From Desulfatiglandales bacterium (GTDB lineage Bacteria > Desulfobacterota > DSM-4660 > Desulfatiglandales > Desulfatiglandaceae), in contig OY759599.1 in NCBI GenBank assembly GCA_963662465.1, positions 320,001-384,000 on the forward strand: a stretch of 64,000 nucleotides of DNA. The letters are read 5' to 3'. Both the position numbers and the translations under genes were made by a program. Numbering within the stretch: position 1 is the stretch's first letter; each line of letters starts with the position of its first letter. Shown piece by piece: positions 13,529-41,492 of this stretch. Below the pieces are notes generated by a model that was not told where the DNA came from, ran no database searches, and worked only from the letters and a program-made list of their open reading frames with translations.

Positions 13529-13615
13529 GCCGAAGTGGTGGAATCTGGTAGACACGCTATCTTGAGGGGGTAGTGGGCTACGCCCGTGCGGGTTCAAGTC
13601 CCGCCTTCGGCACCA
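13529..13615 (+). tRNA. tRNA-Leu(GAG)
   Basis: Acceptor GCCGAAG/CTTCGGC, anticodon arm CTATC-TTGAGGG-GGTAG, long variable arm, GGTTCAAGTCC T arm, encoded CCA. Confidence 0.97.
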
Positions 13616-13652: not shown

Positions 13653-14822
13653 TTAAGTGGCCTGTTTTTCGTTCAAGGTAACATTTTGGGTAACATTTTT
13701 GAAAAACACCTCCAGGCTGTTAACAGCGTTCCGGGTGTCTTCCAGGTCAACCGTGTTGTATCGATCAAACATTTCCCGTGTTGAATGGCCGGTAATCGCC
13801 ATGATAACGCTTTCCGGTACACCTGCCTTTCGCATATTCGTGTTGAACGTGTGCCGTAAGTCGTGAAAAACGAAACCGCCTTTCTCGAAACGGCCATAAA
13901 CGATATCTGATTTCTTGCAGGCTTTTACCAATCCGGTCCTAATATCGGAAACAGGTTTTCCCCGAAAAAGGAAAATATGCTTGTCGTGAATATGCCGGGT
14001 AACATTTTTTAACATTTCATGAAGTTCATCGCTTATCGGAATTGACCTTTTTTCATTATCCTTTGTATCAGAAGCCTCCAGGTTGATGAAACGGTTTTTC
14101 ATGTCAACTTTATCCCATGTCAGATTCAGGATTTCCCCACGACGCATTCCGGTGTAATATCCCATGGTGATAATTTCCCGGATATGCCGGGTTGAATTTC
14201 CACAAAGCCGGGTGAATTCGTCATGGGTCAAAATCCTATCCCTGATATCCGTGCCTTTTTTGAGAACATTCTTGACGACCTTAAACGTCCGCATAGTCTC
14301 GCCACTGATCATTCTATTGTCGAATGCCTTTGAAACCATGGTTCTTGTTTTGCCGATCTCATGGTCAATGGTCGCTGGGGCCATGCCTGCTTTAAGGCGG
14401 ATCGCCTGATAGTTCTCCAGGTCCGCCGGGGTGATCTTGGCAATAATGGTTCCGCCATAAACTTTGTTGAATTTCACGAGGGAAATGCGGATTGTATCGA
14501 ATGAAGCCAAAGCCTTCACCTTTTCCAATTTCAGATACCAGTCGGTCAATTCCTGAAACGTCATCTTAGCATCGGCCTTGATATCGAAAAGACGGCCTTC
14601 CTTTTTCTGAGTCTTTTTTTTTCCGTCCGCCGCTCGGGCCTCCTCAATGGACGTGCCCACGGGTTCCTGTTTCTGCTTGCCGCTGGGTAGTCGGTAACTG
14701 ATCCAGTATATGAGCTTTTTCCCTGACTTGGCCTTATTCAAGTCAGATCCGCACATTTTGCAGAGCTTATTTTTAATGGATTGCCGGGTTTTGCATACCG
14801 GGCATTGAGCCAGAATTCCCAT
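13653..14822 (-). CDS. int: Tyrosine integrase with N-terminal zinc ribbon
   Basis: TGMRRGEI, TK, FHDLRHT, ITGH, RY catalytic motifs; CPVC..CKMC at the N-terminus; adjacent to attL. Confidence 0.95.
   Translation of the reverse strand: MGILAQCPVCKTRQSIKNKLCKMCGSDLNKAKSGKKLIYWISYRLPSGKQKQEPVGTSIEEARAADGKKKTQKKEGRLFDIKADAKMTFQELTDWYLKLEKVKALASFDTIRISLVKFNKVYGGTIIAKITPADLENYQAIRLKAGMAPATIDHEIGKTRTMVSKAFDNRMISGETMRTFKVVKNVLKKGTDIRDRILTHDEFTRLCGNSTRHIREIITMGYYTGMRRGEILNLTWDKVDMKNRFINLEASDTKDNEKRSIPISDELHEMLKNVTRHIHDKHIFLFRGKPVSDIRTGLVKACKKSDIVYGRFEKGGFVFHDLRHTFNTNMRKAGVPESVIMAITGHSTREMFDRYNTVDLEDTRNAVNSLEVFFKNVTQNVTLNEKQAT
13675..13700 (+). promoter_or_regulatory. Putative integrase arm-type sites (GGTAACA repeats)
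   Basis: aaGGTAACATTTTgGGTAACATTTT near attL; GGTAACA recurs in tandem at about 33398-33420 near attR. Confidence 0.7.
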
Positions 14823-14908
14823 AAATACCGCCTCCGAAAATATACGATTGTTTCGGGTATTGTTTCATGGTATCATGTCTTCATCCATTTAGGGAAAGGG
14901 AAATTACC

Positions 14909-15163
14909 ATGGGCGCCACTATCACATTTGACACCTTCGAAAACGTCAAGAGACTAAAAGCCGTCGGTTTCACGGAAGAGCAGGCTGCCGAACAGACAAA
15001 AATCATCAGCGAACTTCTGGATGAACAGCTTGTAACAAAGCAATATCTTGATATACGCCTTAAAGAGCTTGATGCCAGCGTTACAACGAACATCATCAAA
15101 TGGGTTGCCGGAATGCTGGTTGTCCAGGCTGGCGTTGTTGCCGCTTTGGTTAAGCTTCTGTGA
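14909..15163 (+). CDS. DUF1640/CCDC90-like coiled-coil protein with C-terminal TM helix
   Basis: FDTFENVKRLKAVGFTEEQA; hydrophobic C-terminus; paralog at 52421. Confidence 0.8.
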   Translation: MGATITFDTFENVKRLKAVGFTEEQAAEQTKIISELLDEQLVTKQYLDIRLKELDASVTTNIIKWVAGMLVVQAGVVAALVKLL

Positions 15164-15293
15164 TTTTCATCGTTTCCTATGCCGAAACATCCGCGCCTTT
15201 CCCATCAACTCTTCCGTGCCGGCCATAAACGCCACGGCCAGGGCGCCCAAAACAGTCCGGGCCCCTGGGGTTGTCTGGCCATGACAAGTGATA

Positions 15294-15788
15294 TCATGCC
15301 GCCATTTGCGCTTCCTGGAATTCCAGGGCCTCTTCCGTTGGCTCCTCCACTGTTCCGTATTTCTTTTTCAGGTACAGCTCCGCCAGATGGGCATACGCCT
15401 CGCGTTCCTCTTTATCCAACAGGAACACGCTCATGGATTTTTTAATTTTATCCGGCAACTGTAGAAACTGCCATTGCAGCTCATGGCAAGCTCGGTTTTC
15501 CATAACGTTTCGCGTCTCGGTCCGGAAGTCGTCCGCGGGGGACTTCCCACGGTATTCTTTTTTGAAAAAGCTGTCCAGGGCGTCCCATCGAAGCATGCAC
15601 GACCAAAGGGTGGTGGTCACTGAGTGTACAAGCGGTGTGTCCCTCAGCTCCCCTCTTTCCCACATGGTCGTCAACATCTCATGGATCAATTTCATGGGTT
15701 CCTTTACGGCGATTTCAAGTTCCTGTTGATAATCCAAAACATCCGGTTTTGTGCCGTCCTTGTGTTCGTAGAATGCCAAATTGTCCAT
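15294..15788 (-). CDS. Hypothetical protein
   Basis: 164-aa ORF with AGGAGG RBS; last of three co-oriented genes. Confidence 0.7.
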   Translation of the reverse strand: MDNLAFYEHKDGTKPDVLDYQQELEIAVKEPMKLIHEMLTTMWERGELRDTPLVHSVTTTLWSCMLRWDALDSFFKKEYRGKSPADDFRTETRNVMENRACHELQWQFLQLPDKIKKSMSVFLLDKEEREAYAHLAELYLKKKYGTVEEPTEEALEFQEAQMAA

Positions 15789-15799
15789 TGTGTTCCTCC

Positions 15800-16021
15800 T
15801 TAGGATTTCTTCCTGCCCGCAATGGCCTTTTTCCAGATTTCATCTAACGCCCTATCTGCGACATCAACCATCTTATGCAAGATAAAATCACCCCTGGTAT
15901 CTTCAGCCGTGGCCCCGATCGCGCTTGCCATCCATTTCACCTCATGTGCGAAATTGTAATAGTCGTGGTACAGCTCATCAAATAAAGACCAACTGACCGT
16001 GTTTTCATTCTCTGTGGTCAT
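15800..16021 (-). CDS. Hypothetical protein
   Basis: GGAGG RBS; ATGA overlap with upstream ORF. Confidence 0.7.
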   Translation of the reverse strand: MTTENENTVSWSLFDELYHDYYNFAHEVKWMASAIGATAEDTRGDFILHKMVDVADRALDEIWKKAIAGRKKS

Positions 16022-16401
16022 TGTGCCACCTCCTTTTCCGGTTTACACAGGACGCCAATGGGAACACCGCCGTCATAGGTGATTTCATCTCGCATCGGCG
16101 TGTCTATGAAAAACCTACCCCCCATGGCTTCCTCAATAAGATCACATGCCTTTTGAACCTTCAACTTATTGGCTTCAATCAAAGCCTCGCATACAAATCC
16201 AAAATTTTCATAGGCATCATCACCTATCATATTAACGAGTGACTCCATTTGTTTCAGTGGTGTCATCATGAAATCTTCAAGGCAGATTCGGAATGCTTTT
16301 GTTTCATTTCCGTATTGGTTCAGGTAAATTGGGTTCCAATTATCGTCTTTTATGATTTCGGGTTTCTGTGTTTCCGGGGAGTAGTTTTCTTTCTGAGACA
16401 T
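16018..16401 (-). CDS. Hypothetical protein
   Basis: GGAGG RBS before ATG 16401 (MSQKEN). Confidence 0.7.
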   Translation of the reverse strand: MSQKENYSPETQKPEIIKDDNWNPIYLNQYGNETKAFRICLEDFMMTPLKQMESLVNMIGDDAYENFGFVCEALIEANKLKVQKACDLIEEAMGGRFFIDTPMRDEITYDGGVPIGVLCKPEKEVAQ

Positions 16402-16416
16402 GCTGCAACCTCCAAT

Positions 16417-16488
16417 AAAAAAGCGCACAAGATGTCTCATGGTGTATTAAACCATTCCGGGCCTCACGGCTGCCGGCATCTTGTGCGC
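16417..16488 (-). ncRNA. C4-antisense-like three-way-junction RNA (putative)
   Basis: 12-bp closing stem GCGCACAAGATG/CATCTTGTGCGC, GTGA (GNRA)-capped inner stem, ATGGT-ttaatac-ACCAT stem, then a U run. Confidence 0.45.
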
Positions 16489-16626
16489 GAATATTTTGTA
16501 TAAATAAAAAATGCCATTTACGGTTGGCCTCCGAATACGTTTTGAGAGAAACCCACAAATACCCCGTTGCCGCCTGCTCGTCAAGGTTTTTTTTAGCGGG
16601 CCGAAAAATCGGTTGGCTTCCCCGGT

Positions 16627-18085
16627 AGATCGCCTTAATTTTAAGGAGATCTTTTAACCGCCTCATTTTTGAGGCGGTTGAATTCCCCGGCTTCCAAACG
16701 GTCCAGGGCCTCGGGGTGGTCTCTGGATAGGCGGCGGAGTAGGTAGGTTTTGCCTCTGTCTTGTTTGGGCTTATCATTATTAAAACGGGTAGCGTCACTA
16801 CCTGTTTTAATACCCCTTCCAGGTCCAGACTTACCCTTACCTATTTCCTGTTTGGGTAGCGGCATCTCCCGGGCGGCGGAAATAGCATCCCTCAGCGGCA
16901 CCTCGAAATCCGGGTCCTTGATCTTCAGCCAGGCAACCGCCAGATCGGCTTAATTCTCAGCCGATCTTTTACACCTGGCAGGGAAGAGACCGCCTGAATT
17001 TTAAGGCGGTTAAATACGTCGATCTGTGCTTCTGGTTCAAGTTGGGTGAGGGGGCGGACTTGGGATTCATTGGTGGGCTGAATGTCCCCCATGGGGGATA
17101 AAAGTTTTTGGACTTTCGCAGAATCTATCAACCGATATACGTGTGATTTCCTTATTTCCCACCGATCCCGGCAATAATCCTCAAACGTCGAGTACTGCTC
17201 ACGGTAGAGGCGGGAAACAACCACGATCCCCCGCCAGGCTTCACCAGAGCCCCCGTGTTGGTCGTTCGCTGTTCAACCCTTACATGGGTATGGGTATTTT
17301 AAGAAACGGTTGTTTTTTGTCTCCCCGGTCTGTTCCATAGCGTCAATGACCTGGACCACCTCTGCGGCTTTCTCTGCGGTCTTGCCGGACATTCCTACTT
17401 TCGCCGCTGCCAGGTCTCGGGAATCACCTTTTACTTCCGGTAAATTTTCCGGAAGTGAATCGCCTTTATACTGGACTGCCTGCCTCACCTTAGCCCGCGC
17501 CGCCTCGATCTCCTTCAGCTTCGTGAACTCCCGGGCCTTCTGCTCGTTGTTTTACGCATTATCAGAGGCGTTTAGAAAAACGTATACGCTTATCATACAA
17601 ATAGGCTGAATTTCGGCGGATATTCCTTTGCCTGTTTATGGGTGATCACTTCCCCGGCTTCGGCCTTTTCGATTGCTTCGGTACGGGCAGACGCGGGGGT
17701 GCTGTTTTGGGCAAGGAGATAAAGGGCGGACCTTGAAATGTCTGAATTACCAAATTTTGGTAATTTATCCGCCACATTCATCATGTTTTGAATCGTTTGA
17801 CGTTCCCACGGAAAATTGGCCTCACAGCAATTCATAAACTGCCCATGTTCCAACCTTTCCTTGACTTCCAGCAGGTCACGGCCGTTCTCCCAGATCGTTT
17901 GAGAAGTACGGGCAGATTCGGGGGGTGCGTAGGCGTTTGATGGTCCTTTCTGATTGCCCGGTTTCTTCGGCAATCTGTGCCACGGTGGCACAGTTTCCGT
18001 TCGTTGGGCCTTCCTTCACGCCCCGAATCTCATAAAGCCGCTTGATCGCCCGCGCCATGGAAGACGTTGACAACTGCCGCCGCCG
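16627..18085 (-). other. Array of five phage DNA-binding gene fragments (ParB-like, HTH, DUF3102-like), each with an internal palindrome, plus four linker palindromes
   Basis: Fragment palindromes at 16778-16812, 17085-17098, 17433-17456, 17745-17765, 17975-17993; linker palindromes at 16627, 16656, 16942, 16989. Confidence 0.75.
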
Positions 18086-18153
18086 TCCATCCATACCCAC
18101 CTATGCCTTTAACCGATAACGCTTAACCTCGGCAATCTGACAGGCTGCAAGCC

Positions 18154-18381
18154 TTAATAATCCGCATCAAGTTCCCTTGTGTCTGAATCTTGAAAAATAG
18201 CGCCGATCAACTCATATATGCCGTTCATATCTTCCATTGTGGTGGTGTCGCCTGATTCAAACAGCTTGCATTCAGAACATGGAACAATGGCCACCCTATG
18301 GTTTGCTGAATAGCATAGACATCGCCAGTAATGCTTACAGTCATACCGCCTTTTGGCCTTCAGGGGTATCCGTTTGATCAT
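18154..18381 (-). CDS. Small Cys-rich protein coupled to terL
   Basis: ATG overlaps the terL stop (ATGA); CKHYWRCLC and CSEC motifs. Confidence 0.6.
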   Translation of the reverse strand: MIKRIPLKAKRRYDCKHYWRCLCYSANHRVAIVPCSECKLFESGDTTTMEDMNGIYELIGAIFQDSDTRELDADY

Positions 18382-19789
18382 CTGCTTAACCAGGATGGCC
18401 GTTTGTATTGGTGGGACTTCGTTTGCGCCTTCAGCGGCCTCGGGGGCCTCTTGTGGTTGGGTTGCCGTTTTGCCATGTAGACAGGCTTTTGCAGCACACG
18501 CACACCGCCGGCACATTGCGGGTCCGCCGCCGCCAGTGCGTAAATCTCACAGTCCAACCAGTGATTAGGGCCGGAAACGTGCCACTCGATCTTGCCGTTT
18601 CGATGGACTCTTTTTTCCTCTGAAATGATGTGCTGGGCATAGATTTTGCCCACGTCCTCATGAAGATACCAGGCGCCCGGTTCCCCCTGGGCAAGGCCAA
18701 TGCGATAATGGAGGGCGTCTTTGAGCTGGTCCGTGTTCAACAAAAACAGCCGTAAGCCGCCAGGGATAGCCATTCCAGACCGGCCAGGCATCCGATCTAT
18801 GACGGAAAACTTAATTCGTTCGGTGGTTTTCCAGGATTGACCTTTCACACCAAAAGCGATCCCATTCCCATTGTTTCGGAGCCAGGTGTAGCACTCTTCA
18901 GTCATGGTGAAGCCTTCAGATCCTTCGCCGCCGCCTGTGTCGATAAATGCACGCCATATGCCCATGGATTTCTCAGAATCCACAATGGGATAAGTATCTT
19001 CAAAAACTATCTGTCGAATATCATCCCAACTTTGAGCCTCGCCATATCGGATAAGCCAGGAGGTCATATCACGCCGCCAGGCTCTGACAACGTAATAGAA
19101 CGAAAACTTTTGAACATCGATGCCGCAAGTGAGTGCCACCACATCCGCCGGAACAGTCAGCGGCGCCAGGTCGGTTTTGCATTTCAGGATATCATCGGTT
19201 TTTTTGACTGTGAGGGTTTGCTTCCACTCTTGGCATAGCCAGCCATTGCGGAAATTCATCAAACGTCCGATGTCGTCTTTTGAATCCAGGAATTCGTAGG
19301 CGATATCGCCCCAGCTGAGAAACGGCGAATACAGGCTGTTCAACTGAAAACCAACTGATTCAGCCTCCTCAAATGGGCTATCTTCCTCTGATTGCCATTG
19401 CCCTTTCCTCAACATCTCAGGCTTATCATTATCCAGGATTTCTTTTTGACAGTGAGCGCACTCATAGCGGGCTGCACGTTTGATCTTCAGCCGGGTTGAC
19501 TGTTCGCTCGTATCTCCGAAGCTGGGCCATTTGATTTGCTCAAACACAAGTAGCTGCAAGCCGCCACAGTGCGGGCAGGGGACAAAGAATTGATATTTTA
19601 AATCACAATCCCGATGATATCTGGAAATGAGTCCACCTTCCACTGTGGGACTGGAAACAAGCACGGTTTTTCGGGTGTATTGGAAGGTCTTTTGCCGTTC
19701 CATCGCCAATTTAATGGGATCTGCATCTTTCCCAGAAAACTGCGGGAAGGTGCTTACCTCGTCACAGAAGACATTCTCAATGGGCATTG

Positions 19790-21795
19790 CGCATAAGTCT
19801 AAATGTTGTGGGGTTGTATAACCCATCAAAATTAAAAGGCGTTTTCGGTAAACAAGAATGCATTATGAACATTCATAACTTGAATCCAAGGTAAGTCAAA
19901 TGTTTGGCCGTTGGCTAATTCAAAGGGACTTTTATGAGCATTTTTTGCGCCAGGTAAAAATGGGACAAAATTCCTGATAGTCGCATGTGCTCGAAAAAAA
20001 AGACTTGCCCATTTCTTATCTCGAAAACTCTCAATTTGTTTTAGTTTACGTTTGATTCCTTTTAAATAATTGTCAACAATGGAGGTTGTTTGTTTTATCC
20101 CATTTCTATTTTTATGAGAGGTATAATGAGTGGCATTTTCTTTTAATTCTACTACCCTCTTTTTTAGTAATGGATGAGAAAATGCATCGTCATCTAATGC
20201 CTTAATCTTTACTTCCAAGTTAACTTTAGATGTGGATGTTTTCAAAACTTTCTTAAATTTTTTATAAAGCTTGTCCACTTCTTGGTCGGTACATTTTGAT
20301 TCTTTTTGATATTTTGATAGTGCATCGTAGAAGTTTTTCAAACAATGACGATGGCAATATCCGACCCAAATGTTATGGAATACGGTCTTGATAGCATTGG
20401 TTGAGGCTTTCCACTTATCTTTTGTTACACCAAGGATTTTGAAGTCGATTTTTTGCAAAAAATCCTCAAATGAACCGCACAGGTTTTCTTCATCAACATG
20501 ATCAACATAATCGGAGTGCCATACTAATAAATTTTCAGGATCGACCATAACTACAGAATAAGTTCTTAAATTTGGTTCTTTTTCAAAGCCCTCATCTTCC
20601 TGTAGATATCCTGAGCCTTTCACTCCTGCTCTTGTTAGTATTGTTGCAGGATGAAGTGTTCCTGCCCATCGATTCCAGTTCAAGATGGTCTGTTTGCTTT
20701 TGACACTTTTTTTGCCAATAATTTTAAGGCTTTCGATGGCTCCTTGAATGCTCGCATTAAAACGGTACATATTCCGAAATACGTGCCCAATAATCTCTAT
20801 ACCAAAATTCTTTTCCCTTGGGAGAAAGCTGGGAACAAGAGAGAACTTTTGTTTGCACTTCCGGCATTGTATCATGCGGATTGGGAATGTCTGTTGTTCT
20901 CCTCCATTCATTATTGTTTTTCGAGGATTCCCGCGGAAACCAGATAAAATATATTCTTTAGGTCCAGAACATGTTGAATTATGGCCTGTGTGGTGATCAT
21001 ATTTATCGAGTTTATCTAATACTTCAATGCGAAACTTCTTACTATCTTTTACGAGAGCATGATAGCTTTCGGTGTTATTATAAGGAAAGATATATGTTTG
21101 ATTTCCTCGTTTAGAAACAAGGTCTTCCATTTTCTTTTTTACATTTTCGATTATGGATTTATCAAAAGATTTTAACATCCCTATCTCAAATGCAATACTG
21201 ATTGTACTATCACGACTTTTTACATTATTCAATTTTTTAGTAATATTACTTATCATTGAACGAATTGAATAAAAGATTCTAATTTTCTGTCGATCCCGTT
21301 GTGTTTTTGGAATGCTTTTTTTCCCTTTTATTGGCTTACAAATATCCCATAATTGACTTATTAACCTACCAAGTTCATCAATAAGAGCAGACAATGTTAC
21401 ATAAAAATATTGCAATGATTGAAACATCTCCCTTTCATTGATCCATGATCTGATGGCATTAATGCATTTCTCAATTTCAAAGAAAATCTCAGGATACTGT
21501 TTTGGATCGTAATAACATTGTCTTGCAAGTCTGTTTTGAGCTTTGTCCAACATTGTCAAAGCTCTCTTAATATTATTAATCATGTGCAACCTCTCTAATT
21601 TAACATAGACTGTTGCACTATGATTATGCACACTTATCAAAAAAAGTCCCTAACTTTTTTCCGCTAAGGCGAATTCAGGAAAAAATGTTTGGCCTCACGA
21701 AATGCGCTTTGATTAGGATATTGATTCTGAACCGTTTAACAGATGAAATAATTTCAATATGTTAGAGTAAACCCCACAACATTTAGACTTATGCG
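19790..21795. mobile_element. IS element (2006 bp) inserted in terL
   Basis: Perfect 26-bp TIR CGCATAAGTCTAAATGTTGTGGGGTT; 8-bp TSD GGGCATTG (19782-19789 and 21796-21803). Confidence 0.95.
19832..21640 (-). CDS. DDE transposase with CxxH motif (Mutator/IS256-like superfamily; family uncertain)
   Basis: Only long ORF inside the TIRs; CRKC, QEDEG, TKD and YCHRH motifs; AT-rich. Confidence 0.8.
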   Translation of the reverse strand: MISVHNHSATVYVKLERLHMINNIKRALTMLDKAQNRLARQCYYDPKQYPEIFFEIEKCINAIRSWINEREMFQSLQYFYVTLSALIDELGRLISQLWDICKPIKGKKSIPKTQRDRQKIRIFYSIRSMISNITKKLNNVKSRDSTISIAFEIGMLKSFDKSIIENVKKKMEDLVSKRGNQTYIFPYNNTESYHALVKDSKKFRIEVLDKLDKYDHHTGHNSTCSGPKEYILSGFRGNPRKTIMNGGEQQTFPIRMIQCRKCKQKFSLVPSFLPREKNFGIEIIGHVFRNMYRFNASIQGAIESLKIIGKKSVKSKQTILNWNRWAGTLHPATILTRAGVKGSGYLQEDEGFEKEPNLRTYSVVMVDPENLLVWHSDYVDHVDEENLCGSFEDFLQKIDFKILGVTKDKWKASTNAIKTVFHNIWVGYCHRHCLKNFYDALSKYQKESKCTDQEVDKLYKKFKKVLKTSTSKVNLEVKIKALDDDAFSHPLLKKRVVELKENATHYTSHKNRNGIKQTTSIVDNYLKGIKRKLKQIESFRDKKWASLFFRAHATIRNFVPFLPGAKNAHKSPFELANGQTFDLPWIQVMNVHNAFLFTENAF

Positions 21796-22271
21796 GGGCA
21801 TTGATTTCAGGTCCGCCGCACTGTTCGCGGTTGCTGCATACCATATGGCGTCGGCAAAGTGCATTTCTCTGTTCTGAAACAGATCCGGGCTCGGGTGCTT
21901 TTTTGATCTGAGGGTAGGACAAGCATTGATCATCGGTTTAACCCTGGTTCGGGAGAACTTGTCCACCACCTGGTCCGTTGGAAGAACATGCAAAATTGAT
22001 CCGCCGGTAATATCCAAAATATATCCCAGCATATTTAATTGAGCTTCACTTTTGCCCAGCTGGGTCGCAAACTTCAGAACCATTAAATGAATGTTGGGTG
22101 CCACAAAGCACTCCATCGGATACCGTAAGTACGGCGTCCGGTCTGTGTTCCAGGGGCCAGGTTCGGCCGATGTGGTCCTGGTAAGAACACGCCTTTGGTC
22201 CGCCCACATGGCCGGGTCTTTGATGTCGGATAGCTGCCAGCCGTCTTTGATCTCGCGTAACAGAGGACTTT

Positions 22272-22910
22272 TCATTTCAATTTTCCTTTCAATGTCGAAG
22301 CGTTTTGACCTTTTGACATATTCGTGAGAATCGCGCCGGTAAGCTCTGAGAGGACTGACTGCATATCCTGGGCAGATAATCCCACCAACTTGCCAGGAGC
22401 CGTCCTGGGGAGCAGGGCCAGGTGTTTCTTCACATAAGATTGCATCTCCCGGAAGGCCACCATCACATCCGCTTTCACGAGCAGGTCCCCACGTTTCAGT
22501 TTGAGTTCCAACTCGGCCAGTTTGGACTTGTGTTTTTTCAACTGTAATTTCCAAAACTCAATATCCGTTTCATCGCCAGGGCCTTTTTTCTTTTGCTTTT
22601 TCGAGTCGATCCAAGCCTGAATATCCGCGAGGCAGAATCCACCATCGGGCCTTGTGGGCATGCCGTCCCTGATCCAATTGGAAACCGTTCTCTCAGTCTT
22701 TTTGAAATGTTTCGCCACCACAAGTCGGCTGTAGGTGAGACCCTCCACCCGTCCGTTTTCGGCCTTTAGGCGCTTCTCCAGGGCGTTGAAAACTCCCATT
22801 TCCGCCGGGGAAATTTTCCCACTTTTTATCTTTTCAAGCAAGTTGTTGAACTGCTTTGTGACAGCGGCCTGGGCAATAGTGGAAATATCTTTGGCCTTAT
22901 CAGGTTTCAA
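22272..22910 (-). CDS. terS: Terminase small subunit (Nu1-like winged HTH)
   Basis: VAKHFKKTERTVSNWIRDGMP HTH, coiled coil AELELKLKRGDLL; ATGA-coupled to terL. Confidence 0.85.
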   Translation of the reverse strand: MKPDKAKDISTIAQAAVTKQFNNLLEKIKSGKISPAEMGVFNALEKRLKAENGRVEGLTYSRLVVAKHFKKTERTVSNWIRDGMPTRPDGGFCLADIQAWIDSKKQKKKGPGDETDIEFWKLQLKKHKSKLAELELKLKRGDLLVKADVMVAFREMQSYVKKHLALLPRTAPGKLVGLSAQDMQSVLSELTGAILTNMSKGQNASTLKGKLK

Positions 22911-24124: not shown

Positions 24125-25129
24125 TTACGCTCGGCCGGGTTGACCGAAAATGAAAAGTTTATGTAACGCCGGATAGTCCCGTACAGCTTGTTTCATAGCT
24201 GATTCAGTCGTGCATCCTTCCCGGTCCTTAATGGACTGCCAAGCCTCGGTAAAGGTCTTGGGTCCCGATACCGCCGCCGGGGTCCGCTGGGTGGCGGTGG
24301 GTGCCGTTGCTTTCGGTGGGATCTGTTTCCCAAACTTTGCGAAACGATCCGCCAGGTAGCGGGCCTTTGCGATTGCTTGGTCCAGGTCCCCGATCTGATC
24401 CGCCAGACCAGAGTCAATGGCCTGGGTGCCGATATAGATCCGCCCCTCGGTGTCCAGAATGCTTTGAACGGGCAGACCACGGTTTTGCGCCACACTGTCC
24501 ACAAACAGGCTGTAAACGTAGTCAACCCCTGCTTGTATGTAGGCTTTTCCGTCTTCAGAAAGCGGCTCAGAATCGTTTCCAATGGTTTTGTATTTGCCCG
24601 CGTAAATGAAGGACCGCTTCACACCGGCTTTTTCATTAGCCACCGAGTAATCATAATGGGCCTGGACAACGCCGATGGAACCAACTTCCCCGGTTTGGGG
24701 CGTGATAATCCAGTCCGCAGAAGATCCTATCCAGTAAGCCGCACTTGCCGCCATTCCGTTTACAAATGTGACCACGGGCTTTTTCTCCGAAGCTGCACGA
24801 ACAATTTCCGCCAGATCGTTGGTGCCGTCCACGGTTCCGCCTGGGGAGTCCACGTTCAAGAGGATGCTTTTAACTTTTGGATCCTTTTTTGCCTGGTTCA
24901 CCTGTTCGCCGATGGTCTGCATGGCGGTCGATCCGAAAAGCATTTGCAACCAGCCGGGCCTCTTGGCCAGCACGCCACGAATGTTGATCACGGCCACGCC
25001 GCCGTCGATGCTGTATTCCGCCGGGTTTTCAACCGTTGTGGGGGCCTTCAGCGATGCCGATTGAATTTGCGCAATGATTCCCGTTAGCCGTTCGGGGATG
25101 AGCGCCCATTTCTCAGTTTGCGTTAGCAT
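24125..25129 (-). CDS. S49 family peptidase (phage head-maturation protease-like) with scaffold-like C-terminal motif
   Basis: VDSPGG, MAASAAYWIGS, VGSIGV, AGKYK, GLADQIG. Confidence 0.92.
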   Translation of the reverse strand: MLTQTEKWALIPERLTGIIAQIQSASLKAPTTVENPAEYSIDGGVAVINIRGVLAKRPGWLQMLFGSTAMQTIGEQVNQAKKDPKVKSILLNVDSPGGTVDGTNDLAEIVRAASEKKPVVTFVNGMAASAAYWIGSSADWIITPQTGEVGSIGVVQAHYDYSVANEKAGVKRSFIYAGKYKTIGNDSEPLSEDGKAYIQAGVDYVYSLFVDSVAQNRGLPVQSILDTEGRIYIGTQAIDSGLADQIGDLDQAIAKARYLADRFAKFGKQIPPKATAPTATQRTPAAVSGPKTFTEAWQSIKDREGCTTESAMKQAVRDYPALHKLFIFGQPGRA

Positions 25130-25588: not shown

Positions 25589-26349
25589 TTTTCAGTCTCC
25601 TTTTGTAAAAATGCACCCCATTATGGGACGCTGGTTTATTTTGCGCCTAATTCTTGATAGGTTCGCATTCTACTTTTTGCCGCTGCCTCAAATACGCCGA
25701 TTTTTGAGTCCACAAAATCCACTATTGTCGCATGGCTTTGTCCAGGTGAAGGACGCAATCCACGCCCAACGGCCTGAATTAAACGTCCCTTGAATTTCAT
25801 AGGACTTGCCAAAATAACAGATCCCAAAGCCGGTAAATCAAAACCCTCCCCAACCAATTGCGATGTGGCAACCAACGCTTCGCCTTTTCCGGCATTCAGT
25901 TTTTCAACCACTGATTCCCTGGCTTTTTTGCTCAAATCGCCGGTGAGTACCAACGGATTTATATCGAAATCCCGTTCCAGGGCGTCCGCAAGCGCCATGC
26001 ACTGCATCCTCCTGTCGCTTAGGACCAAAGGTATGCCTTCCCCTGTTTTCGCCTGTTGGGCGGCTTCTTGACACACAAGGGCGTTTCTTCCCGTGTCCAT
26101 GGTAAGTTCGGATAACATTTTAGAATATTCGTTCGATGGGTCCCGGTCGGTCGTGAATTGGGTTGAAATCCATTTAACCCGGAAGGCCAAAATGGCGCCG
26201 GATTCTGTCAATACTTTCTGATCAATGCGGTGGGCGGTATCGCCAATATACCATCCGATAAGCCGGGTGAGTTTATCGCGCCGGTACGGGGTGGCTGATA
26301 GTCCCAACATATATTTTGAATCAAACGCGATTATGGCTTCCGAAAAGGT

Positions 26350-28957
26350 CAGAGTTCCTGGTAAATGACCTTTACGCAACTTAACTGTTTGAAATCGTTA
26401 TACTGGAGCTTCTCATAATTTCGTGTGCATTTCAGATTTTAGTGCAGCGTAACTAGCTGAAAATATTAGGTGGGGCAAAATATTTTTTTTATTGACAAAT
26501 GAAAACTGAAAAATTATCTTCAGACCATGATTGTCAAAACAGAAAAAATTAGCGACCTATCCATATGGACCGAGCGGGATTGGAAGGAAAAAATCACTGT
26601 TACGGTTTATCATGAGTATCGTCCTGTCGTCAGTTTCGATCCTGGGAAGATAAATGATAGGAGACTCGCTGCCGTACAACTTGTCGAGCTTGGTTATTGT
26701 AAAAACCGGGTTGCCGGTAAAATCTGTGGGTTTCACCGCAATACGGTTGGCAAACTGCTTCGCACCAAAAGACTTTTAGGTGTTGAGGCCATATTTGAGG
26801 ACAACCGTGGTCCCAAGGCTCCCTGGAAATATATTGGCAGCATTCGCAAAACCATCAAAAAACTTATCCGCGAGAATCCTGACTGGACTGACCAGCAGAT
26901 TGCAAATGCCGCGGAAAAGCAAACTGAAACGACTATTTCGAGAAGTGCTGTAGCTCGTATCAGAACCGCGGACCAAGATGCAGAAACTGAAAAGCCTACA
27001 AAGCATGACTTGGAGCAACTGGCTAAAATTGCGGATAGTATTGATTTGAAGCAACACGACGAGCGACAGCTTTCTTTCAACTTTGAGGCTGATTCTGAGT
27101 TCAAAAAGAAGGTAGATGAATTTGCTGATGAGGATACACCCAAGCCACAAACCGATACAGATAAAGTATTCCTGGATTATCTTCAACAGGGACAACGCAA
27201 TGTCTTTGCCGGCATGCTTCTTCACCATCTGTTTTTAGATCATATCAACTTCCCAAATGCCTTTGATTTGCCTTCTTATTCCAATAATATGTATGATAAT
27301 TATGAAGTGATGGAAACTGTCCTTTTCGGGTTGAACATCGGGTTGCCATCTATCGAATCCCATAAGCTGGTCAACAGTAGGGACATGGGGCTTTTGCTGG
27401 GACGAACCAGTTCCCCCGATGAGACCACTATTCGGTTGCGTTTAAAACAGATGGCCGAGTTCAAGCCCTCAGAGAGCCTGATAGATTATTTCGCAAACCT
27501 GTTTCTATCGTTGGGGTTCATCAACCCAGAGGTGTTTTTTATCGATGGGCACTTCCTTCCCTATTATGGACTGAAAGTTCTATCCAAAGGCTACCATACC
27601 GTGAGACGAATTGTCATGAAAGGAAACGAGATTTATGTTGTCAGCGACCTTGACGGGAAGCCTTTCTTTTCAATTACCGAAGGGTGTGATATCGATTTCA
27701 GGCCGATCATCATAAGAGCGGCCGACAAGATAATCAGCCTGGGTGTCGACCGCCCCATTGTGGTTTTTGATCGCGGTGGTTATGGTGTTCACTTTTTCAG
27801 TCAATTATCGAAAAGGGCTGACTTTATTACGTGGGCCAGGTATGTGAAAAAAGATGAATTGAAAGACTTGGAATATACGAGCTGCTTGATGTTTAATGGG
27901 AAAAGATATCTCATTGCCGAGAAAACAAAACTGATTCGTGAATCGATTTCTACAGCTGCCAAAGAAGGCCGAACAGAGGCAACTTCGACAGAAGTACGTA
28001 TGGTTGTTTTCAAGGAATTGGACAAGGATAGACCTGTGGCAATATATACCAGCAATCATCAAAAGCCTGCTCCTGATATTGCCGCATATATGCTTTCACG
28101 ATGGGGAGAGTCTGAAAACTTTTTCAAAGAGATGATGTCCCTGTACAACTTCAATTATCATCCCGGTTATGATCTTAAAGAACTTGAAGAACAGCCTCTT
28201 GTAGATAATCCTGAGGTAAAAACAATCAAAAAAACGATCAAGGGAATTAAACAAAAGATGGGGCAATTGGCGCTTGCAAAACAACAAACAGAGTCCAAAA
28301 TAGAAGCACGAAAAGATCTTCGTCTTAAAAAAAAGCTAAACACGCTCCAGGAAGAGATAGAGAAATACGACAAAGAGCTTGACGGTTTTCAGGCAGCCTT
28401 AAAAGAAATGCCTGACAAAGTATCGATAATTGAAGTGCTGAAAGGCAGACCAATGAACAAGGCAGATCTGGAGAAAAAGAAGCTCTACGACCTGATACAA
28501 ATGATTGCCTTTCACTCACGCGAGCATCTGGTTGGCCTGTTCCGTTCATGTTATGATGATCCGCGGGATGTGAAACAGATCCTGACAAAGGTCACAAAAC
28601 TCCCTGGTTATGTGAAATTAGTCGGGAAAACACTTGTTGTGCTTTTAGATTGGATAGAGGACAAAAAGCATCGGAAGGCAGCAACAAGATTTTGCCATCT
28701 GATAAACACTATGTCGCCCAAATTGAGAGGTCGCATGGAGTTCGACCTTTATTTTCGCATCTCCTCAATCCCTCAAGTGGGTTATTGCTGTTAAAGCCTT
28801 GCTCATCGTTTCAGCCATCCTACGCAGGGTATCGTGTTTCGACCACATGTAGGGGCGAAAAATCTTTCGCCCTAATGGCCGAAACAATGATCAAGGCCGC
28901 TGTTGAACTAAATGCACAATTTGAATTGAGAAAAAACGTCATTTACTATGATGTCTG
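26350..28957. mobile_element. IS element (2608 bp) inserted in the helicase gene
   Basis: Imperfect 20-bp TIR (CAGAGTTCCTGGTAAATGAC / CAGACATCATAGTAAATGAC); 6-bp TSD AAAGGT (26344-26349 and 28958-28963). Confidence 0.92.
26527..28794 (+). CDS. Large DDE transposase (IS4/IS1634-like superfamily) with coiled-coil insert
   Basis: FIDGH, VFDRGG, RWGESENFFK; N-terminal HTHs; homologous to 52776-54848. Confidence 0.85.
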   Translation: MIVKTEKISDLSIWTERDWKEKITVTVYHEYRPVVSFDPGKINDRRLAAVQLVELGYCKNRVAGKICGFHRNTVGKLLRTKRLLGVEAIFEDNRGPKAPWKYIGSIRKTIKKLIRENPDWTDQQIANAAEKQTETTISRSAVARIRTADQDAETEKPTKHDLEQLAKIADSIDLKQHDERQLSFNFEADSEFKKKVDEFADEDTPKPQTDTDKVFLDYLQQGQRNVFAGMLLHHLFLDHINFPNAFDLPSYSNNMYDNYEVMETVLFGLNIGLPSIESHKLVNSRDMGLLLGRTSSPDETTIRLRLKQMAEFKPSESLIDYFANLFLSLGFINPEVFFIDGHFLPYYGLKVLSKGYHTVRRIVMKGNEIYVVSDLDGKPFFSITEGCDIDFRPIIIRAADKIISLGVDRPIVVFDRGGYGVHFFSQLSKRADFITWARYVKKDELKDLEYTSCLMFNGKRYLIAEKTKLIRESISTAAKEGRTEATSTEVRMVVFKELDKDRPVAIYTSNHQKPAPDIAAYMLSRWGESENFFKEMMSLYNFNYHPGYDLKELEEQPLVDNPEVKTIKKTIKGIKQKMGQLALAKQQTESKIEARKDLRLKKKLNTLQEEIEKYDKELDGFQAALKEMPDKVSIIEVLKGRPMNKADLEKKKLYDLIQMIAFHSREHLVGLFRSCYDDPRDVKQILTKVTKLPGYVKLVGKTLVVLLDWIEDKKHRKAATRFCHLINTMSPKLRGRMEFDLYFRISSIPQVGYCC

Positions 28958-29683
28958 AAAGGTACGGCTCGGGCAGTGGTGGGCCTCATCGACGACGACG
29001 AAACCGAAGTATCTCTTTATCGAGTCCGCGATTTTATAAATGCTCTGTACGGTCGCAACCGTGATATCTCGAATTTCACATTTGCCGCCGCCAATGACTC
29101 CTATTTCTTTTTTGGGAATTCCAAGGAATTGCGTGATCCGTTCACGCCATTGCTCCAGGAGAGTTTTTGTGTGTACGATTACCAACGTTGGTTGTTGCCG
29201 CTCCGCAATCACGAAAAGGGCCATGGCTGTTTTTCCGCTGCCTGTGGGAGACTGCAATGTACCGAAGCGCCGGGAACGAACGGCTTTGACAGACGCCTCC
29301 TGATATGGTCGCAACTCGCCATGAAACCGAAAAGGGATCTCTGGTAATTCCCTGGTACGATCTTCCCATTCAAAAGCAACGTTGTGTTGGCGGGCGATGG
29401 TCGCCAGCTGTCGCACAAAGCCACGGGGTACGATCAGCCGTCCGGGTCCTGGTTCCCAAAAGTGATGTAAATACTCTGGCGTCTCTCCTTGCCAGCGATT
29501 CATTTTCTGATTGTCGATCCACTTCGGGTTTTTGATGGTAAGCCGGTTGATGATTTCACGGCGTACCTGTTCGGGTGCCTCGAAAATTTCAGCTCGGTTG
29601 TTGACGATGATTTTCATTTTTGTTTGTCCTCAAATGTGCATCCCAATAACCCAAAGGCGGAAAGGGTTTTTTAAAATCCGGGC

Positions 29684-29918: not shown

Positions 29919-32120
29919 TTAAAACCGAATTTGGTTGAAATTCATGTGGTCAAGCGGCACTGTTTTCAACCCCTTTTTTACGGGTCCAACTGACCCCGTT
30001 GACACCTCATTTTCATCCAAAAGATACCCTTCAACCATTGCTTCGATCAGTCCCGGGAATTCCTTTTTCTTAAAGTTCGGGAACTGCTCTTTGATGATTT
30101 CGATAATGTGGTTCACAACCCCTTTTTCGTTTTTAACAAAATCCCGCTGGCTATATTTCATTGGGTTTGCTTCGATCTCGTAATACAGAATTGCAAACAG
30201 TTTGCCTCGCCTTTGGGATTCCAGTGCCGCATATTCCAAAGTCCCGGCTTCGGTTCGTTTGAAAATCAATTTTGATTGCAAGCCAGCTGCGTAATTCGTT
30301 TTCACGATATCGAATGCGATATATCCACGGGGGTCGTCAATTCCATACCGCTGACATTCCGTCTCTGTAACGCCGGTCATGCCGGCAACCCAGCGGCAAC
30401 CGTCCACAATTGCAGACGCTCCACGGCTCATATTCTGGTTCATAGTCGCACCATTGGCTTTTGATACGTGGTGCGAAAACAAGATGGTGAGATTGAATTC
30501 TACGGCCAGGGCTTCAAGGCATGAAATCCATTGGGTGCTGTGATCGTTCGAGTTTTCGTCAAGTCCATAAAATCTTGACTTTGGATCTAAAATCAACACG
30601 TCCAGGGGGTCATGATTTTTGATCGTTTGCCGCAGCCATTCCCAATGTTTTGACCTTACGGGGTTATTATCAGCCAATTCCATAAGGGGGCCTAGACGGC
30701 CAACAACAGACACCACATGTAAATTAGTTGGGAATACGCCTGTTTCGGGCGATATCGTCCACAAGCGGCGGTCCACTTCGACCTGGGGGTCTTCGCCGCA
30801 TAGCATCAAAACTTTTAATTCCTGCGTAACTTTAAGGGGTCCAATGCCGGTTCCGTTCGCCGCGCCGTAAGCAAATTGCTGAAGGAAAAATGTTTTTCCG
30901 GTTCCGCCAGCGGCCATAAGTCCACCCACGATTCCCCTGGTTAATATGGGGCGTCCATAATATTCGAGCAATGCGTCTGGGATTGGTGGCGCCTCTGTGA
31001 TATTTACAGCTGTTTGTTCCGGTGTCAGCGGTGGGAAATCGTCAAATTCTTCAGTGCTAGATTCTTTTTCACCAATACATTTTGAGCAATCAAAAGCGCT
31101 TCCGGGAAATCCCATGCCTTTCATGTAGCTGCAATGGAATGCTGCATCCGCATCGCCTGATAGATAAGCAAACATCTCCTTAAAGTGCTGCAACCGTCGC
31201 TCGGGGGTGGTATATGTGCCGGAATGCGGGTATTTTTCCAGAAACGGCCATACAACGCCGATAGTCCGTTTTTCATCGTAACCAGCGGTGATGAAATATT
31301 TACAAAGATTCAAAACCAACTTATTGAAATTCGTCTTTTCCGTTGTCGGGCATGCTGTCAGAACATAACGGATACATGGTGGGATTTCTTTGGATATACG
31401 GGCCTTTTCGTCTTCTGTAAGCGGGTCAGCCTCCACCTTTTCGGACTGCTCCCGGTAAACGAACTTTTTAGCCTCAAGAAACATGTCGGCCAGGTCCACG
31501 CAAACATCCGGCGTGTCGTCGTCAACGTCAATATTCCTGGGGGCCTTGGTGAGTTCGATCAAAGCCACTTCGGGCAGGTCTTTGAACTCCTCAAGGGTAA
31601 GGGGTACTTTATAACAGCCATTGGCGCGCTTGACATTGGGTAAGCGCCACATGCGGCCACGCTTCATATTAAAGACAGCCATGTCTAATGTGGGCAGATT
31701 AAACGATGTTTTCAGCTCTGCGGCCAGACGCTTGTAAATCTTCGGCAACAACGGATCGCCGGCGTTCGCGCCGAAACACTCCGCCGGGATCTCGACGTGG
31801 ACCCCCTTTTTCCCACTCATGAAAAAACGGAATTCGTACGGGTCCGCTCCATAAAGGTCTGATAGATGAACAAGCGTCAGATCCCGGGCGTTTTGAACCG
31901 CGCCGGGTCCGTCGAAGTCAAGGCAGAAATCTCCACATCTATGGGGTTCCGGGGCGCCGCTGTTCTCCCATGGCTTTGAAACGCTCATGTTGGTGATGAA
32001 CATTGCCCCCTTGCGTAGCGCTGCCTCCCGCGCCGCTGGGGTATCAGGTATGAGCTGCCAGGGGCCTTTTTGTTCGGTTGTCCAATAGCGAAATTGGTTG
32101 ACATTTGAATTTTCAGGCAT
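29919..32120 (-). CDS. Primase-helicase (AEP-like primase, Cys-rich domain, RepA/AAA_25 helicase)
   Basis: LDFDG and SGKKGVH primase motifs; PPCI plus further Cys; AAGGTGKT, ILDP, HHVSK, RGAS. Confidence 0.88.
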   Translation of the reverse strand: MPENSNVNQFRYWTTEQKGPWQLIPDTPAAREAALRKGAMFITNMSVSKPWENSGAPEPHRCGDFCLDFDGPGAVQNARDLTLVHLSDLYGADPYEFRFFMSGKKGVHVEIPAECFGANAGDPLLPKIYKRLAAELKTSFNLPTLDMAVFNMKRGRMWRLPNVKRANGCYKVPLTLEEFKDLPEVALIELTKAPRNIDVDDDTPDVCVDLADMFLEAKKFVYREQSEKVEADPLTEDEKARISKEIPPCIRYVLTACPTTEKTNFNKLVLNLCKYFITAGYDEKRTIGVVWPFLEKYPHSGTYTTPERRLQHFKEMFAYLSGDADAAFHCSYMKGMGFPGSAFDCSKCIGEKESSTEEFDDFPPLTPEQTAVNITEAPPIPDALLEYYGRPILTRGIVGGLMAAGGTGKTFFLQQFAYGAANGTGIGPLKVTQELKVLMLCGEDPQVEVDRRLWTISPETGVFPTNLHVVSVVGRLGPLMELADNNPVRSKHWEWLRQTIKNHDPLDVLILDPKSRFYGLDENSNDHSTQWISCLEALAVEFNLTILFSHHVSKANGATMNQNMSRGASAIVDGCRWVAGMTGVTETECQRYGIDDPRGYIAFDIVKTNYAAGLQSKLIFKRTEAGTLEYAALESQRRGKLFAILYYEIEANPMKYSQRDFVKNEKGVVNHIIEIIKEQFPNFKKKEFPGLIEAMVEGYLLDENEVSTGSVGPVKKGLKTVPLDHMNFNQIRF

Positions 32121-33553: not shown

Positions 33554-33612
33554 CTATCTTGAGGGGGTAGTGGGCTACGCCCGTGCGGGTTCAAGTCCCG
33601 CCTTCGGCACCA
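33554..33612 (+). repeat. attR of element 1 and attL region of element 2 (tRNA-Leu 3' fragment)
   Basis: Exact copy of 13557-13615; lacks the tRNA 5' part. Confidence 0.95.
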
Positions 33613-33635
33613 TTTTTAATAGTAAATTCAACAAC

Positions 33636-34730
33636 TTAAACACTGTTAAGAGCCCTTTCCCGTTGTGCACCTGTTGTGCACCTAGCTTTTCGGAAAAGGG
33701 CTCTTTTCTTTTCGGCATTCACCTGAAAATATCTATCAAAAGCTTTATTGGTTTCATGCCCCGTTCCGTATTTTTTGATTTCTTCCGGTGTGCAATCATC
33801 CCCTAATGCAACAACTGTTGAATGTTTTGTTCCAGGATACAGGGGTACTCCTTCCACTCCCAAATTCTTGCATGCCATTCTCCAATAGGTGTAAATATAA
33901 TCCTTGCCGAATCTTCCCCTTTTTGATTTATGAACCCCTTTTCTTTTCCCATGACGGAAAAAATACATTTCCTTGTCAATGACTGGCGGGAACGATTTTA
34001 TGATTTCAATGTCTTCATCTAAGAGATAAACTTTTTTCGGTTTTTTTTCTTTGTTATGTGTGATTTCCATTATTCCATTGGAAAGATCAATATCTTTTTC
34101 CTTGATATGGATCATCTCAATCGGTCTTACGTTAACGTAAGTGGAAAGCCATAATGCACCAATATAGATTTTAGAATTAAATGTTGTGATACGTTTCAGC
34201 TCTTCTAAAATTATTCCTTGTGTGGGCTTATCAACTATCTTCCGATATTCGCTTTCATAGGAAATATCAGGAAATTCCGGCATTATTATTTTTATTTTTG
34301 CTCTTCTATTTCTCTTAATTACCCAATTGAAAAATGAATGAAGTGTTGCCTTTATGTTGTGTTTTGATTTATCTGAAAGATGGGCAGGTAGTTGGTCAAA
34401 AAAATCCTCTAATTCAGGATAATCTATTTCTTTAATGTTTGTGCTTTTGAAGTAAACACAAGCATAATTCATATGGTTTTTCAGATTGCGTAAACACCTA
34501 ACCTGTTTTTCCTTTTTTTGTAACCACTGCTCGGATAATGTTCTAAACGCCAATGGTTCCCCTTTTTGAAAATCTCTTTCATCAAAGGTCCCTTCATCAT
34601 GTTTGTATCGTAAAGCATTTAAAAATCTTTCAGCTTCATGAAGATCTTCAAAGCGCTTAAAGACTTTCTGAAAACGAACAATATATTTAGATCCCTTTTT
34701 CCCCTTGTTGTTGATGATTTTCCCTTGCAT
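33636..34730 (-). CDS. Divergent tyrosine recombinase/integrase
   Basis: NVRPIE, YPGTKHS, GHET, FDRY; next to att; start taken at ATG 34730. Confidence 0.8.
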   Translation of the reverse strand: MQGKIINNKGKKGSKYIVRFQKVFKRFEDLHEAERFLNALRYKHDEGTFDERDFQKGEPLAFRTLSEQWLQKKEKQVRCLRNLKNHMNYACVYFKSTNIKEIDYPELEDFFDQLPAHLSDKSKHNIKATLHSFFNWVIKRNRRAKIKIIMPEFPDISYESEYRKIVDKPTQGIILEELKRITTFNSKIYIGALWLSTYVNVRPIEMIHIKEKDIDLSNGIMEITHNKEKKPKKVYLLDEDIEIIKSFPPVIDKEMYFFRHGKRKGVHKSKRGRFGKDYIYTYWRMACKNLGVEGVPLYPGTKHSTVVALGDDCTPEEIKKYGTGHETNKAFDRYFQVNAEKKRALFRKARCTTGAQRERALNSV

Positions 34731-35452
34731 ACAAAACCCCCCGTGTCCCTGATTAGTATCAAGGATATTATATGGAGGATTATTTGCTTTTTTGTCAAGG
34801 GAAATATTCATTTATTATTTATTATTGATATTAATTATGTTTTTTATCTGCAATTATAGCATATTTTTTTGATTTTTCTTCGGGTTTTTCAGGCTTTTCA
34901 GAAGTGAGCTTTTCTTTTCCCTTTTTGAAAATGACGGAATTTATCGAGGCTGTTACCCGAATAAAGGAAAGGTATTAATTCAGGAACGACCTTATTGATG
35001 CCTGTAAGCGGGTGTAGCTGGCGGTGAGAGGATGGTGGTTGATAGGTTAGGGTAGCTCCCTAAATCATCTTGAAAAACGAAGTTATTTTTTATTCAAATT
35101 ACATTGTAATATGAAATAGATAGGCGCAAAAAACGAATAAACGGGCCGCATATTCTAATGATTATGCGGAAAAGAATGGAATGGAAGTTGTGAAGATATT
35201 CAAGGATGATATTTCAGGCACCAAAGAAGACCGACCTGCCCTGGCTGATCTTATGTTTGACCTGGAAGAAAACGGGCATGGTGTCAAGACCGTTATCATT
35301 GAAATGGTCAATCGGCTGGCAAGGGATTTGATGGTGCAAGAATTCATCATTAAGGATTTTCAGAAACACGGCTTCCATTTGATTTCCGCCACAGAAGACG
35401 TGGACCTTCTCAGTGAAGATCCAACAAGAAAGTTAGTCCGACAAGTTTTAGG

Positions 35453-37380: not shown

Positions 37381-37691
37381 TGCCATTGCTGAGTATGAAA
37401 AGCAAATGCTTGTGAGGAAACTCAAAGCCGCAAGAGATAGGCAAAGGCGGAAAACAGGAAAATGTGAAGGGCGGAAAAACTGGAAGGAAAAAGCGCCGGA
37501 AGTGTTGGCGGAAGTCAAGGCATTGAGAAGGAAAAGAAAAGGAATTCAAAAGAGGATGTCATTTGCTCAAGTGGCGGAAGTTCTCAATGAAAAAGGATTT
37601 CAAAATTCAACAGGTGGTAAGTTCACTGGTAAAGGCGTTTCGAGTTTGTATTCCCGTAACGCATAGCCTATCAGAACAAGAGTTAATCAAT

Positions 37692-37749
37692 AGCCCTACC
37701 CCTTATTGTAGGGCTTTGTTATTACTGTCGATTGTGGGGCATCTGAGGG
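37692..37749 (+). repeat. Imperfect direct repeat with hairpin, copy 1
   Basis: AGCCCTAC..GTAGGGCTTTGTT...TGTCGATTGTGGGGC.TCTGAGGG; second copy at 40397-40451. Confidence 0.8.
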
Positions 37750-37888
37750 CTTCAAGGATGCAAAACAATTTAATGATATTGATTTGAAGGAGTAAATCCT
37801 ATTGGCGTGAATAATATTCACTATATTTTCTTGTTGACATCCATCCCAGAAAGGTTTTTTATATGTATAATAATTAATTTATTGTTAG

Positions 37889-39583: not shown

Positions 39584-39619
39584 GAATATTTGAAATTGAT
39601 TGAAAAACGGGTAATCAGC

Positions 39620-40360: not shown

Positions 40361-40396
40361 CTGTGTGATCATTTAGACTTGCCGCCGATACTGGAA

Positions 40397-41451: not shown

Positions 41452-41492
41452 TTCAAGCTCCGAGACAAGGTAATTTCTGATATTCGTGTAAC

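Follow-up and report, generated by a model that had tools for sequence, protein, structure and literature searches.

Palindrome-centred pieces of five phage gene families form a candidate docking-site array in a satellite-like element at tRNA-Leu

Within a 64,000-nucleotide stretch of a Desulfatiglandales bacterium genome (contig OY759599.1, positions 320,001 to 384,000; hereafter the window), a first-pass annotation made from the letters alone pointed to a row of phage gene fragments, each built around its own palindrome. This raises the question of where the pieces come from, why each of them holds a palindrome and what such a row might do for the element that carries it. The region consists of five co-oriented minus-strand pieces of ~160-290 bp with no internal stop codons (F1 to F5, Table 1). 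All five palindromes lie where the annotation had placed them, and the five minus-strand peptides that it had read are present, every one of them open and without a stop. Seven palindromes with a score of at least 9 fall within the 1471-bp region, versus a maximum of two in 400 random genome segments of the same length (0/400 reach seven).

Table 1. Features of the array and of the element that carries it (positions in the window).
Feature	Position	Strand	Remarks
tRNA-Leu(GAG), left attachment site	13529..13615	+	3′ 60 bases repeated at 33554-33613
Tyrosine integrase	13653..14822	-	PF00589, E 1.7e-27
c4-2 RNA	16421..16488	-	RF02944, 45 bits, gathering score 41; directly downstream of array
Possible promoter before c4-2 leader	16556..16584	-	TTGACG, 17 bases, TATTTG; by eye; low confidence
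Linker unit 2	16627..16679	.	Two palindromes, 16627-16652 and 16656-16679
F1	~16675-16949	-	Inner piece of unnamed ~200-230 aa phage protein family; parent aa 81-173 of 224; palindrome 16778-16812
Linker unit 1	16942..17010	.	Two palindromes, 16942-16967 and 16989-17010; 80-85% like unit 2
F2	~17020-17216	-	Helix and site piece, Noc/ParB-like DNA-binding module; parent aa 44-108 of 207; palindrome 17085-17098
F3	17318-17553	-	Piece of phage ParB-like gene; parent aa 90-166 of 480; palindrome 17433-17456
F4	~17622-17913	-	Piece of DUF3102 gene; parent aa 30-127 of 331; palindrome 17745-17765
F5/F4 junction	17906..17924	-	19-base near-copy (89%) of F4 3′ arm motif
F5	17925-18085	-	Helix-turn-helix piece of ParB-HTH-MT-A70 gene; 129-183 of 513-codon frame; palindrome 17975-17993
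Terminase large subunit (gpA type)	18378..22275	-	PF20454, PF05876; split by IS at ~19790-21795
Terminase small subunit	22272..22910	-	phrog_57, E 1.6e-17
S49 peptidase	24125..25129	-	PF01343
Helicase	25636..29617	-	PF00271, PF04851; split by IS at ~26349-28959
Primase-like protein with AAA_25 domain	29919..32120	-	PF13481
Right attachment site, tRNA 3′ end copy	33554..33613	+	60/60 identical

Four further palindromes, absent from the first-pass annotation, lie in the linkers and form a two-palindrome unit that is duplicated on either side of F1. The array is therefore not wholly "repeat-free", as it had been called, although no regular direct repeats between the pieces were found in it beyond this duplicated linker. 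A single near-identical copy of linker unit 1 occupies the same slot in the sister element L043. The 19-base near-copy at the F5/F4 junction is best read as the likely trace of an earlier F4-type unit that has since been deleted. A 31-base inverted repeat (71%) flanks the F5-F4-F3 block at 17263-17293 and 18091-18121. No Rfam match was found inside the array, and promoter and terminator scans did no better there than on shuffled sequence (2 vs 2.4 and 7 vs 3.9 ± 2.6, respectively).

The array sits in a 20-kb element (~15.4 kb minus two IS) that is bounded on one side by the tRNA-Leu gene and on the other by 60 bases repeated from the 3′ end of this gene. As expected of a satellite, the element has an integrase, an attachment-site duplication and its own replication genes (the AAA_25 primase-like gene and the IS-split helicase). 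Neither capsid, portal or tail families nor cas families were found among its scanned proteins, several of which match no family at all. This copy is probably immobile by itself because two IS split the large terminase and the helicase; many further IS copies are present elsewhere in the genome. The array lies upstream of the c4-2 RNA and ends ~140 bases from it. The possible promoter before the c4-2 leader is absent from the output of the consensus scan; the sister element L024, in which this leader is conserved, has TTGACA/TATGAT at the matching place. A satellite marker (15294-15788) was found in two of 209 related genomes and in no viral contig searched.

A CCDC90-like small gene, at 14867-15163 and again at 52379-52684, lies at the end of the element and matches 16 places in the genome, often near integrases or tRNA genes. 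Beyond the right attachment site more elements are stacked (33636-52343). They include another integrase at 33636-34811, the reverse transcriptase of a group II intron at 36097-37296 and transposase-like genes; at 49600-52343 the first integrase recurs as a copy (89-95%) that an insertion has split.

One account of such a region is a single decayed or frameshifted gene, or else a chimera of the assembly, and we give it practically no weight. It would suit the common orientation of the pieces and the weak cross-matching of the DUF3102 and F2 models. Each piece, however, covers ~12-42% of the length of its own full-length family, and the single decayed gene is thus rejected: as first proposed, the pieces come from five unrelated families, each with separate full-length genes. 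The chimera is rejected as well, with the junctions lying inside contigs of sequencing run X1 (possibly the source sample) that match the array region without differences (15200-17656 and 17628-19200); these two contigs overlap by just 29 bases, so that no single one bridges the 17628-17656 point.

Two of the five families are of the ParB type (F3 and F5), one is DUF3102 (F4), one is a Noc/ParB-like module (F2) and one has no name (F1). F1 is 52% identical to P0001 and has 971 relatives at E ≤ 0.001, and its parents are short proteins of 200-230 aa in which no enzyme domain was seen (no common Pfam family in the Atlas). F2 is 69% identical to its parent L045, and the module occurs at the N-terminus of diverse phage proteins. 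F3 matches phrog_12047 (E 1e-4), and its parents P0015-P0018 carry PF02195; two database proteins, P0013 and P0014, are F3-like truncations that end near the last residue of F3. F4 matches phrog_1733 (E 3e-13) and is 82% identical to P0002, with 11 longer relatives of which two have MT-A70. F5 is 69% identical to its parent L128, which carries both ParB_N and MT-A70. PF02195, the ParB CTPase domain, is found in the parents of F3 and F5 only and is absent from the 27 F2 frames and 11 F4 parents scanned. A methyltransferase family was found in 16 of 27 long F2 frames and DUF5131 in one, with nothing in the other ten; these frames were hand-picked from 74 loci, and many other parents are short and have no methyltransferase.

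We then asked whether the palindromes belong to the array or to the genes from which the pieces derive. In the F2 family a palindrome occurs at the same codons in 63 of 74 unique full or partial loci (six duplicates left out) versus 38 of 291 control windows, and in the F1 family it occurs at the F1 place in 11 of 13 distinct loci versus 4 of 52 controls, one locus without the motif and one duplicate being left out of that count. All six full-length F3-family loci (L156-L161, five distinct) have a palindrome in the matching stretch, as does the single parent fetched as DNA for each of F4 and F5. Its sequence varies between members of the parent families. The site occurred once per record in all six parent records with a match, out of ten record searches, four of which used another record's pattern; most of these records are incomplete. 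One of 26 pattern matches (L151) looks like a chance match, and no usable pattern came out of an F1 alignment of 44 rows. That every piece keeps a palindrome, the observation on which the first reading had leaned, is correct, but because palindromes are native to the parent genes their presence is inherited and only their central position needs explaining.

The F2 family offers a view of what the palindrome may be for. A scorable site was present in 87 of 101 F2 domains, and helix positions W+8, W+9 and W+5 covaried with bases -7, -4 and -6, respectively (mutual-information z 25, 24 and 17), versus z of at most 4.2 for 14 upstream control positions in the same analysis. At W+9, Arg is paired with C (78 of 82 half-sites), Gln or Lys with A (60 of 68) and Glu with G (9 of 10); at W+8, Tyr or His is paired with T (99 of 100). 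Among pairs with less than 30% background identity, the same three residues came with the same three bases in 26/26 cases, versus 2% of 465 pairs with none in common, counts that are descriptive because the pairs are not independent. Upstream relatedness does not predict the site (rho between background and site, -0.05). The spacing of W+5, W+8 and W+9 fits one face of a recognition helix, and the F2 piece in the window retains a helix and a site that obey the code.

Because helix residues predict palindrome bases regardless of relatedness, each F2-family protein very probably binds the palindrome within its own gene. Covariation strongly indicates such self-addressing for F2; for F1, F3, F4 and F5 we infer it from the position of the palindrome alone. 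The proposal that the palindromes are intragenic operator- or parS-like sites is supported in that they behave like binding sites within genes, as covariation showed for the F2 family only. The predicted F2 module (pLDDT 92.7) resembles the DNA-binding domain of Noc, ParB and Spo0J with moderate scores, Raf1 scoring as high: the best Foldseek hit was Noc at E 0.075 (TM 0.73 on 6y93_B), with none at E ≤ 0.001, and structure comparison gave Z 8.6 for Spo0J (rmsd 3.1, 109 aligned) and Z 9.9 for Raf1. We claim no fold for F1, since the model for its family was poor (pLDDT 56, best Z 4.6).

Helix and site vary as one cassette, as shown by a DUF3102 gene in run X1 that is ~90% identical to both arms of F4 and differs from it only in an 84-base core that contains the helix and the site. 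The depth of this gene is double that of the host contigs. Such a pattern brings to mind silent antigenic-variation cassettes such as pilS and vls, in which promoterless variable cores lie between conserved arms. The pieces could accordingly be donor cassettes, a library of helices with their sites that recombines into helper genes and switches their specificity. In favour of this idea, conserved arms flank a variable core in each piece, the core is the sole difference between the X1 gene and F4, and the helix and site of F2 are matched and follow the code. In contrast to pilS and vls, however, no expressed recipient locus was found inside the element, the families are unrelated, so that five recipients would be required, and arrays of bare sites without any helix exist (L039, below). 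We regard this alternative as improbable.

If the palindromes are native to the parents, why do all five pieces contain them? Random pieces of the same five lengths would all hold the site with a probability of ~0.004 (a rough estimate), and the enrichment of retained pieces for the site, whose absence would have counted against the first reading, is supported. A full-length DUF3102 model of 332 positions run against 209 related genomes found seven pieces, all within positions 30-127, plus two weak other matches; five of the seven have a clear palindrome (score at least 7), and the same model found no complete DUF3102 gene in these genomes. Most other searches were queried with the site region, and detection is therefore biased toward pieces that hold the site, longer models having been used in a few searches only. 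Pieces that lack the site also exist: C1:7734169 and L195 (F2 5′ arm), C1:4711259 (F3 3′ arm), L022 (F3 5′ arm), L043 (F5 3′ stub) and C1:3041211 (a coiled-coil piece). In L040, L211 and the second piece of L215 the palindrome is weak or degraded.

Centring could arise without any function. A stretch of phage DNA covered by its protein would survive degradation of the remainder and, by way of microhomology, fill a break at an integration site or in a cargo slot. Such neutral capture accounts for the centring and size of the pieces, for the several families involved and for the many single pieces near tRNA genes. At L040, L041, L042, L188, L212 and L215 a piece neighbours tRNA or host genes, and the DNA fetched there contains no intact satellite. 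The arm-only stubs and decayed pieces also agree with it, as do sister elements that have no piece. We consider neutral capture the main alternative, though an unlikely one, for three reasons that concern the sites and the slot: it would not easily yield the four related linker palindromes, the filling of a single slot ahead of the same leader time and again (window, L024 and L043) or the evenly spaced bare palindromes of L039.

The slot differs between sister elements in the number and identity of its pieces: it is filled in the window, L024 and L043, whereas L032 and L033 carry no piece, so that the array is dispensable. L024 and L043 also have cargo genes in the slot. In L024 (4324-5606) this cargo includes a SecB-family gene after two genes without a known family, an arrangement reminiscent of toxin-antitoxin-chaperone modules. 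F5-type pieces with different palindromes were found in the same slot of L024, in a remnant in L005 (followed by an F4 stub), in L127 (two in tandem) and in L220, and tandem pieces of one family or leftover sites in L076, L130, L138, L141, L145 and L215, records that include Synechococcus, Solirubrobacterales and Actinomadura. At least two extra palindromes were present at 6 of 21 fragment-class F2 loci (window included), whereas among 85 full genes two had as many (Fisher p 7e-4), with three unclassified loci dropped and L068 and L118, full genes with insertions, counted as fragments. A search of 209 related genomes with the DNA of the array gave a match in ten, covering short parts only, and F1 was found in this genome alone among the 209.

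The locus L039 (2945-3340; G032:C55) contains ~15 bare palindromes of 18-20 bases at ~25-base spacing, mostly with an ACGT centre; 13 came from the palindrome scan and two more were found besides. It belongs to a satellite with a capsid gene, a small terminase and a primase, and the palindromes lie upstream of the integrase and before an F2 piece. Their fit to known F2 sites (10.8 of 18) is no better than that of shuffled palindromes (9.4 ± 1.9), and a pattern made from them was found in no viral contig. A second multi-family array was observed in L127 (430-1260): a piece of ParB type that contains two palindromes, an F2 piece on the opposite strand and two F5 pieces in tandem. An upstream piece may resemble a Rha-type antirepressor.

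All five pieces are free of stops and fall in frames of 71-132 aa that start with GTG, and translation of the pieces could conceivably yield short dominant-negative peptides, which would poison helper dimers or compete for the helper's site. Open frames are also expected from recent capture, however, the GTG starts differ from those of the parent genes, and relatives of the pieces are often truncated, frameshifted or on the opposite strand (L127, L145 and L040). We consider translation into such peptides very improbable.

The reading that we favour, and hold to be somewhat more probable than not, is that the array collects captured docking sites, turns them over and is maintained because they engage the proteins of helper phages. 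The parent genes would encode "self-addressed" DNA-binding proteins that recognise a palindrome inside their own coding sequence. The palindrome neighbours the codons of the recognition helix, and helix and site would be inherited and swapped together as one short cassette. On the many long parents that carry a methyltransferase, the address would direct this enzyme to the phage's own DNA. The satellite would gain site-centred pieces by recombination and tandem addition and lose them by deletion, as the junctions and sister elements suggest, and the captured pieces would be retained as places where helper-phage proteins dock.

Three uses of docked proteins may be considered. The one ranked first, which we put forward as a possibility, is that the satellite is loaded and marked in the way that the DNA of the helper is; F1 does not fit such marking, because its parents are short and no enzyme domain was seen in them. 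Ranked second, and somewhat more doubtful, is that the sites titrate a protein whose phage has a single site. The third, less likely again, is that binding beside the c4-2 leader senses the helper. No resident gene with a matching site was found: at up to two mismatches the sites of F1 to F4 occur only in the array and that of F5 has two weak look-alikes, and the co-occurring X1 DUF3102 gene has a core other than that of F4. More generally, satellites and other small elements might run a protein-free memory of helper phages, in which private addresses are captured and updated so that the element is taken as "self" or disarms the helper; we hold this broader proposal to be plausible but tentative.

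CRISPR arrays are likewise tandem sets of variable, phage-derived pieces that record encounters. Unlike them, the array described here has no regular repeats, and its pieces are 160-290 bp long, are picked for their content and would serve as double-stranded DNA sites. Cargo hotspots and CI/c4-type RNA are features of P4-like and PICI satellites. The present element shares with these its integration at a tRNA gene, integrase, primase, small packaging set, c4-2 RNA and variable slot, and differs in that the slot holds non-coding site cassettes and in its gpA-type terminase and S49 peptidase.

The array would work like the parS sites of ParB/Noc-type proteins. In ParB-parS and Noc-NBS, specificity is set by a few interface residues, four in one study (PMC7383237). 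The predicted helix-turn-helix module, the size of the palindrome and the small number of specificity residues are similar here (PMC7383237). In contrast to ParB-parS and Noc-NBS, the site lies inside the gene's own codons beside the helix and is widely variable, the parents of F2 and F4 have no CTPase domain, and the array is made of sites cut from several foreign genes. BisD of ICEclc, a ParB-like protein, loads at intragenic palindromes named bisS and acts on distant promoters; inrR and ssb contain these sites, bisD does not, and the protein that they serve is the element's own (PMC12409273). BisD-bisS is thus a model for the sensing use, with the difference that the sites in that account are not captured foreign ones (PMC12409273). 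The ParB fold of phages is often fused to DNA methyltransferase domains, with anti-defence roles suggested, and the parents of F3 and F5 belong to this fusion type (PMC12704722). The main text of that paper does not contain the word stem "palindrom", and the available text mentions neither self-sites nor satellite arrays (PMC12704722). The literature searched, which comprised main texts with few subscription papers among them, contained no arrays of fragments or sites in satellites and no self-sites in these families.

Judged from sequence comparison, the array appears to be a new kind of feature, probably a functional one, and the recurrence of arrays across elements points to a hitherto undescribed means by which satellites may dock, sense or distract phage proteins. 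If true, it would be an acquired phage-interaction module built from double-stranded binding sites, not from genes or guide RNAs. The many orphan ParB-like, DUF3102 and methyltransferase-fused phage proteins would gain a candidate target, namely a site within the gene of each that is readable through a residue-to-base code, and a natural set of orthogonal protein-site pairs would be on offer. The code, if it holds, would reveal from sequence the phage to which each captured site responds and would make helper-satellite pairs predictable. Even if the pieces are neutral, their centring on the site would be a footprint of protein positions on phage DNA.

Two F2-family genes, 43-50% identical, are present elsewhere in the genome. 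A full-length F2-family gene lies in a transposon-like element (L002:7026-7700; G000:C1:399025-399700); its site has the half-site core in common with F2, and its close relatives reach nine copies in other genomes. A prophage-like region (L001; G000:C1:10000-21200) encodes a gpA terminase and an S49 peptidase together with an F2-family gene of full length that has a palindrome of its own. This region is a possible helper, but the palindrome is unlike that of F2. At L213:790-1500 (G176:C12), a frameshifted DUF3102 gene carries its own palindrome, with more strong palindromes nearby.
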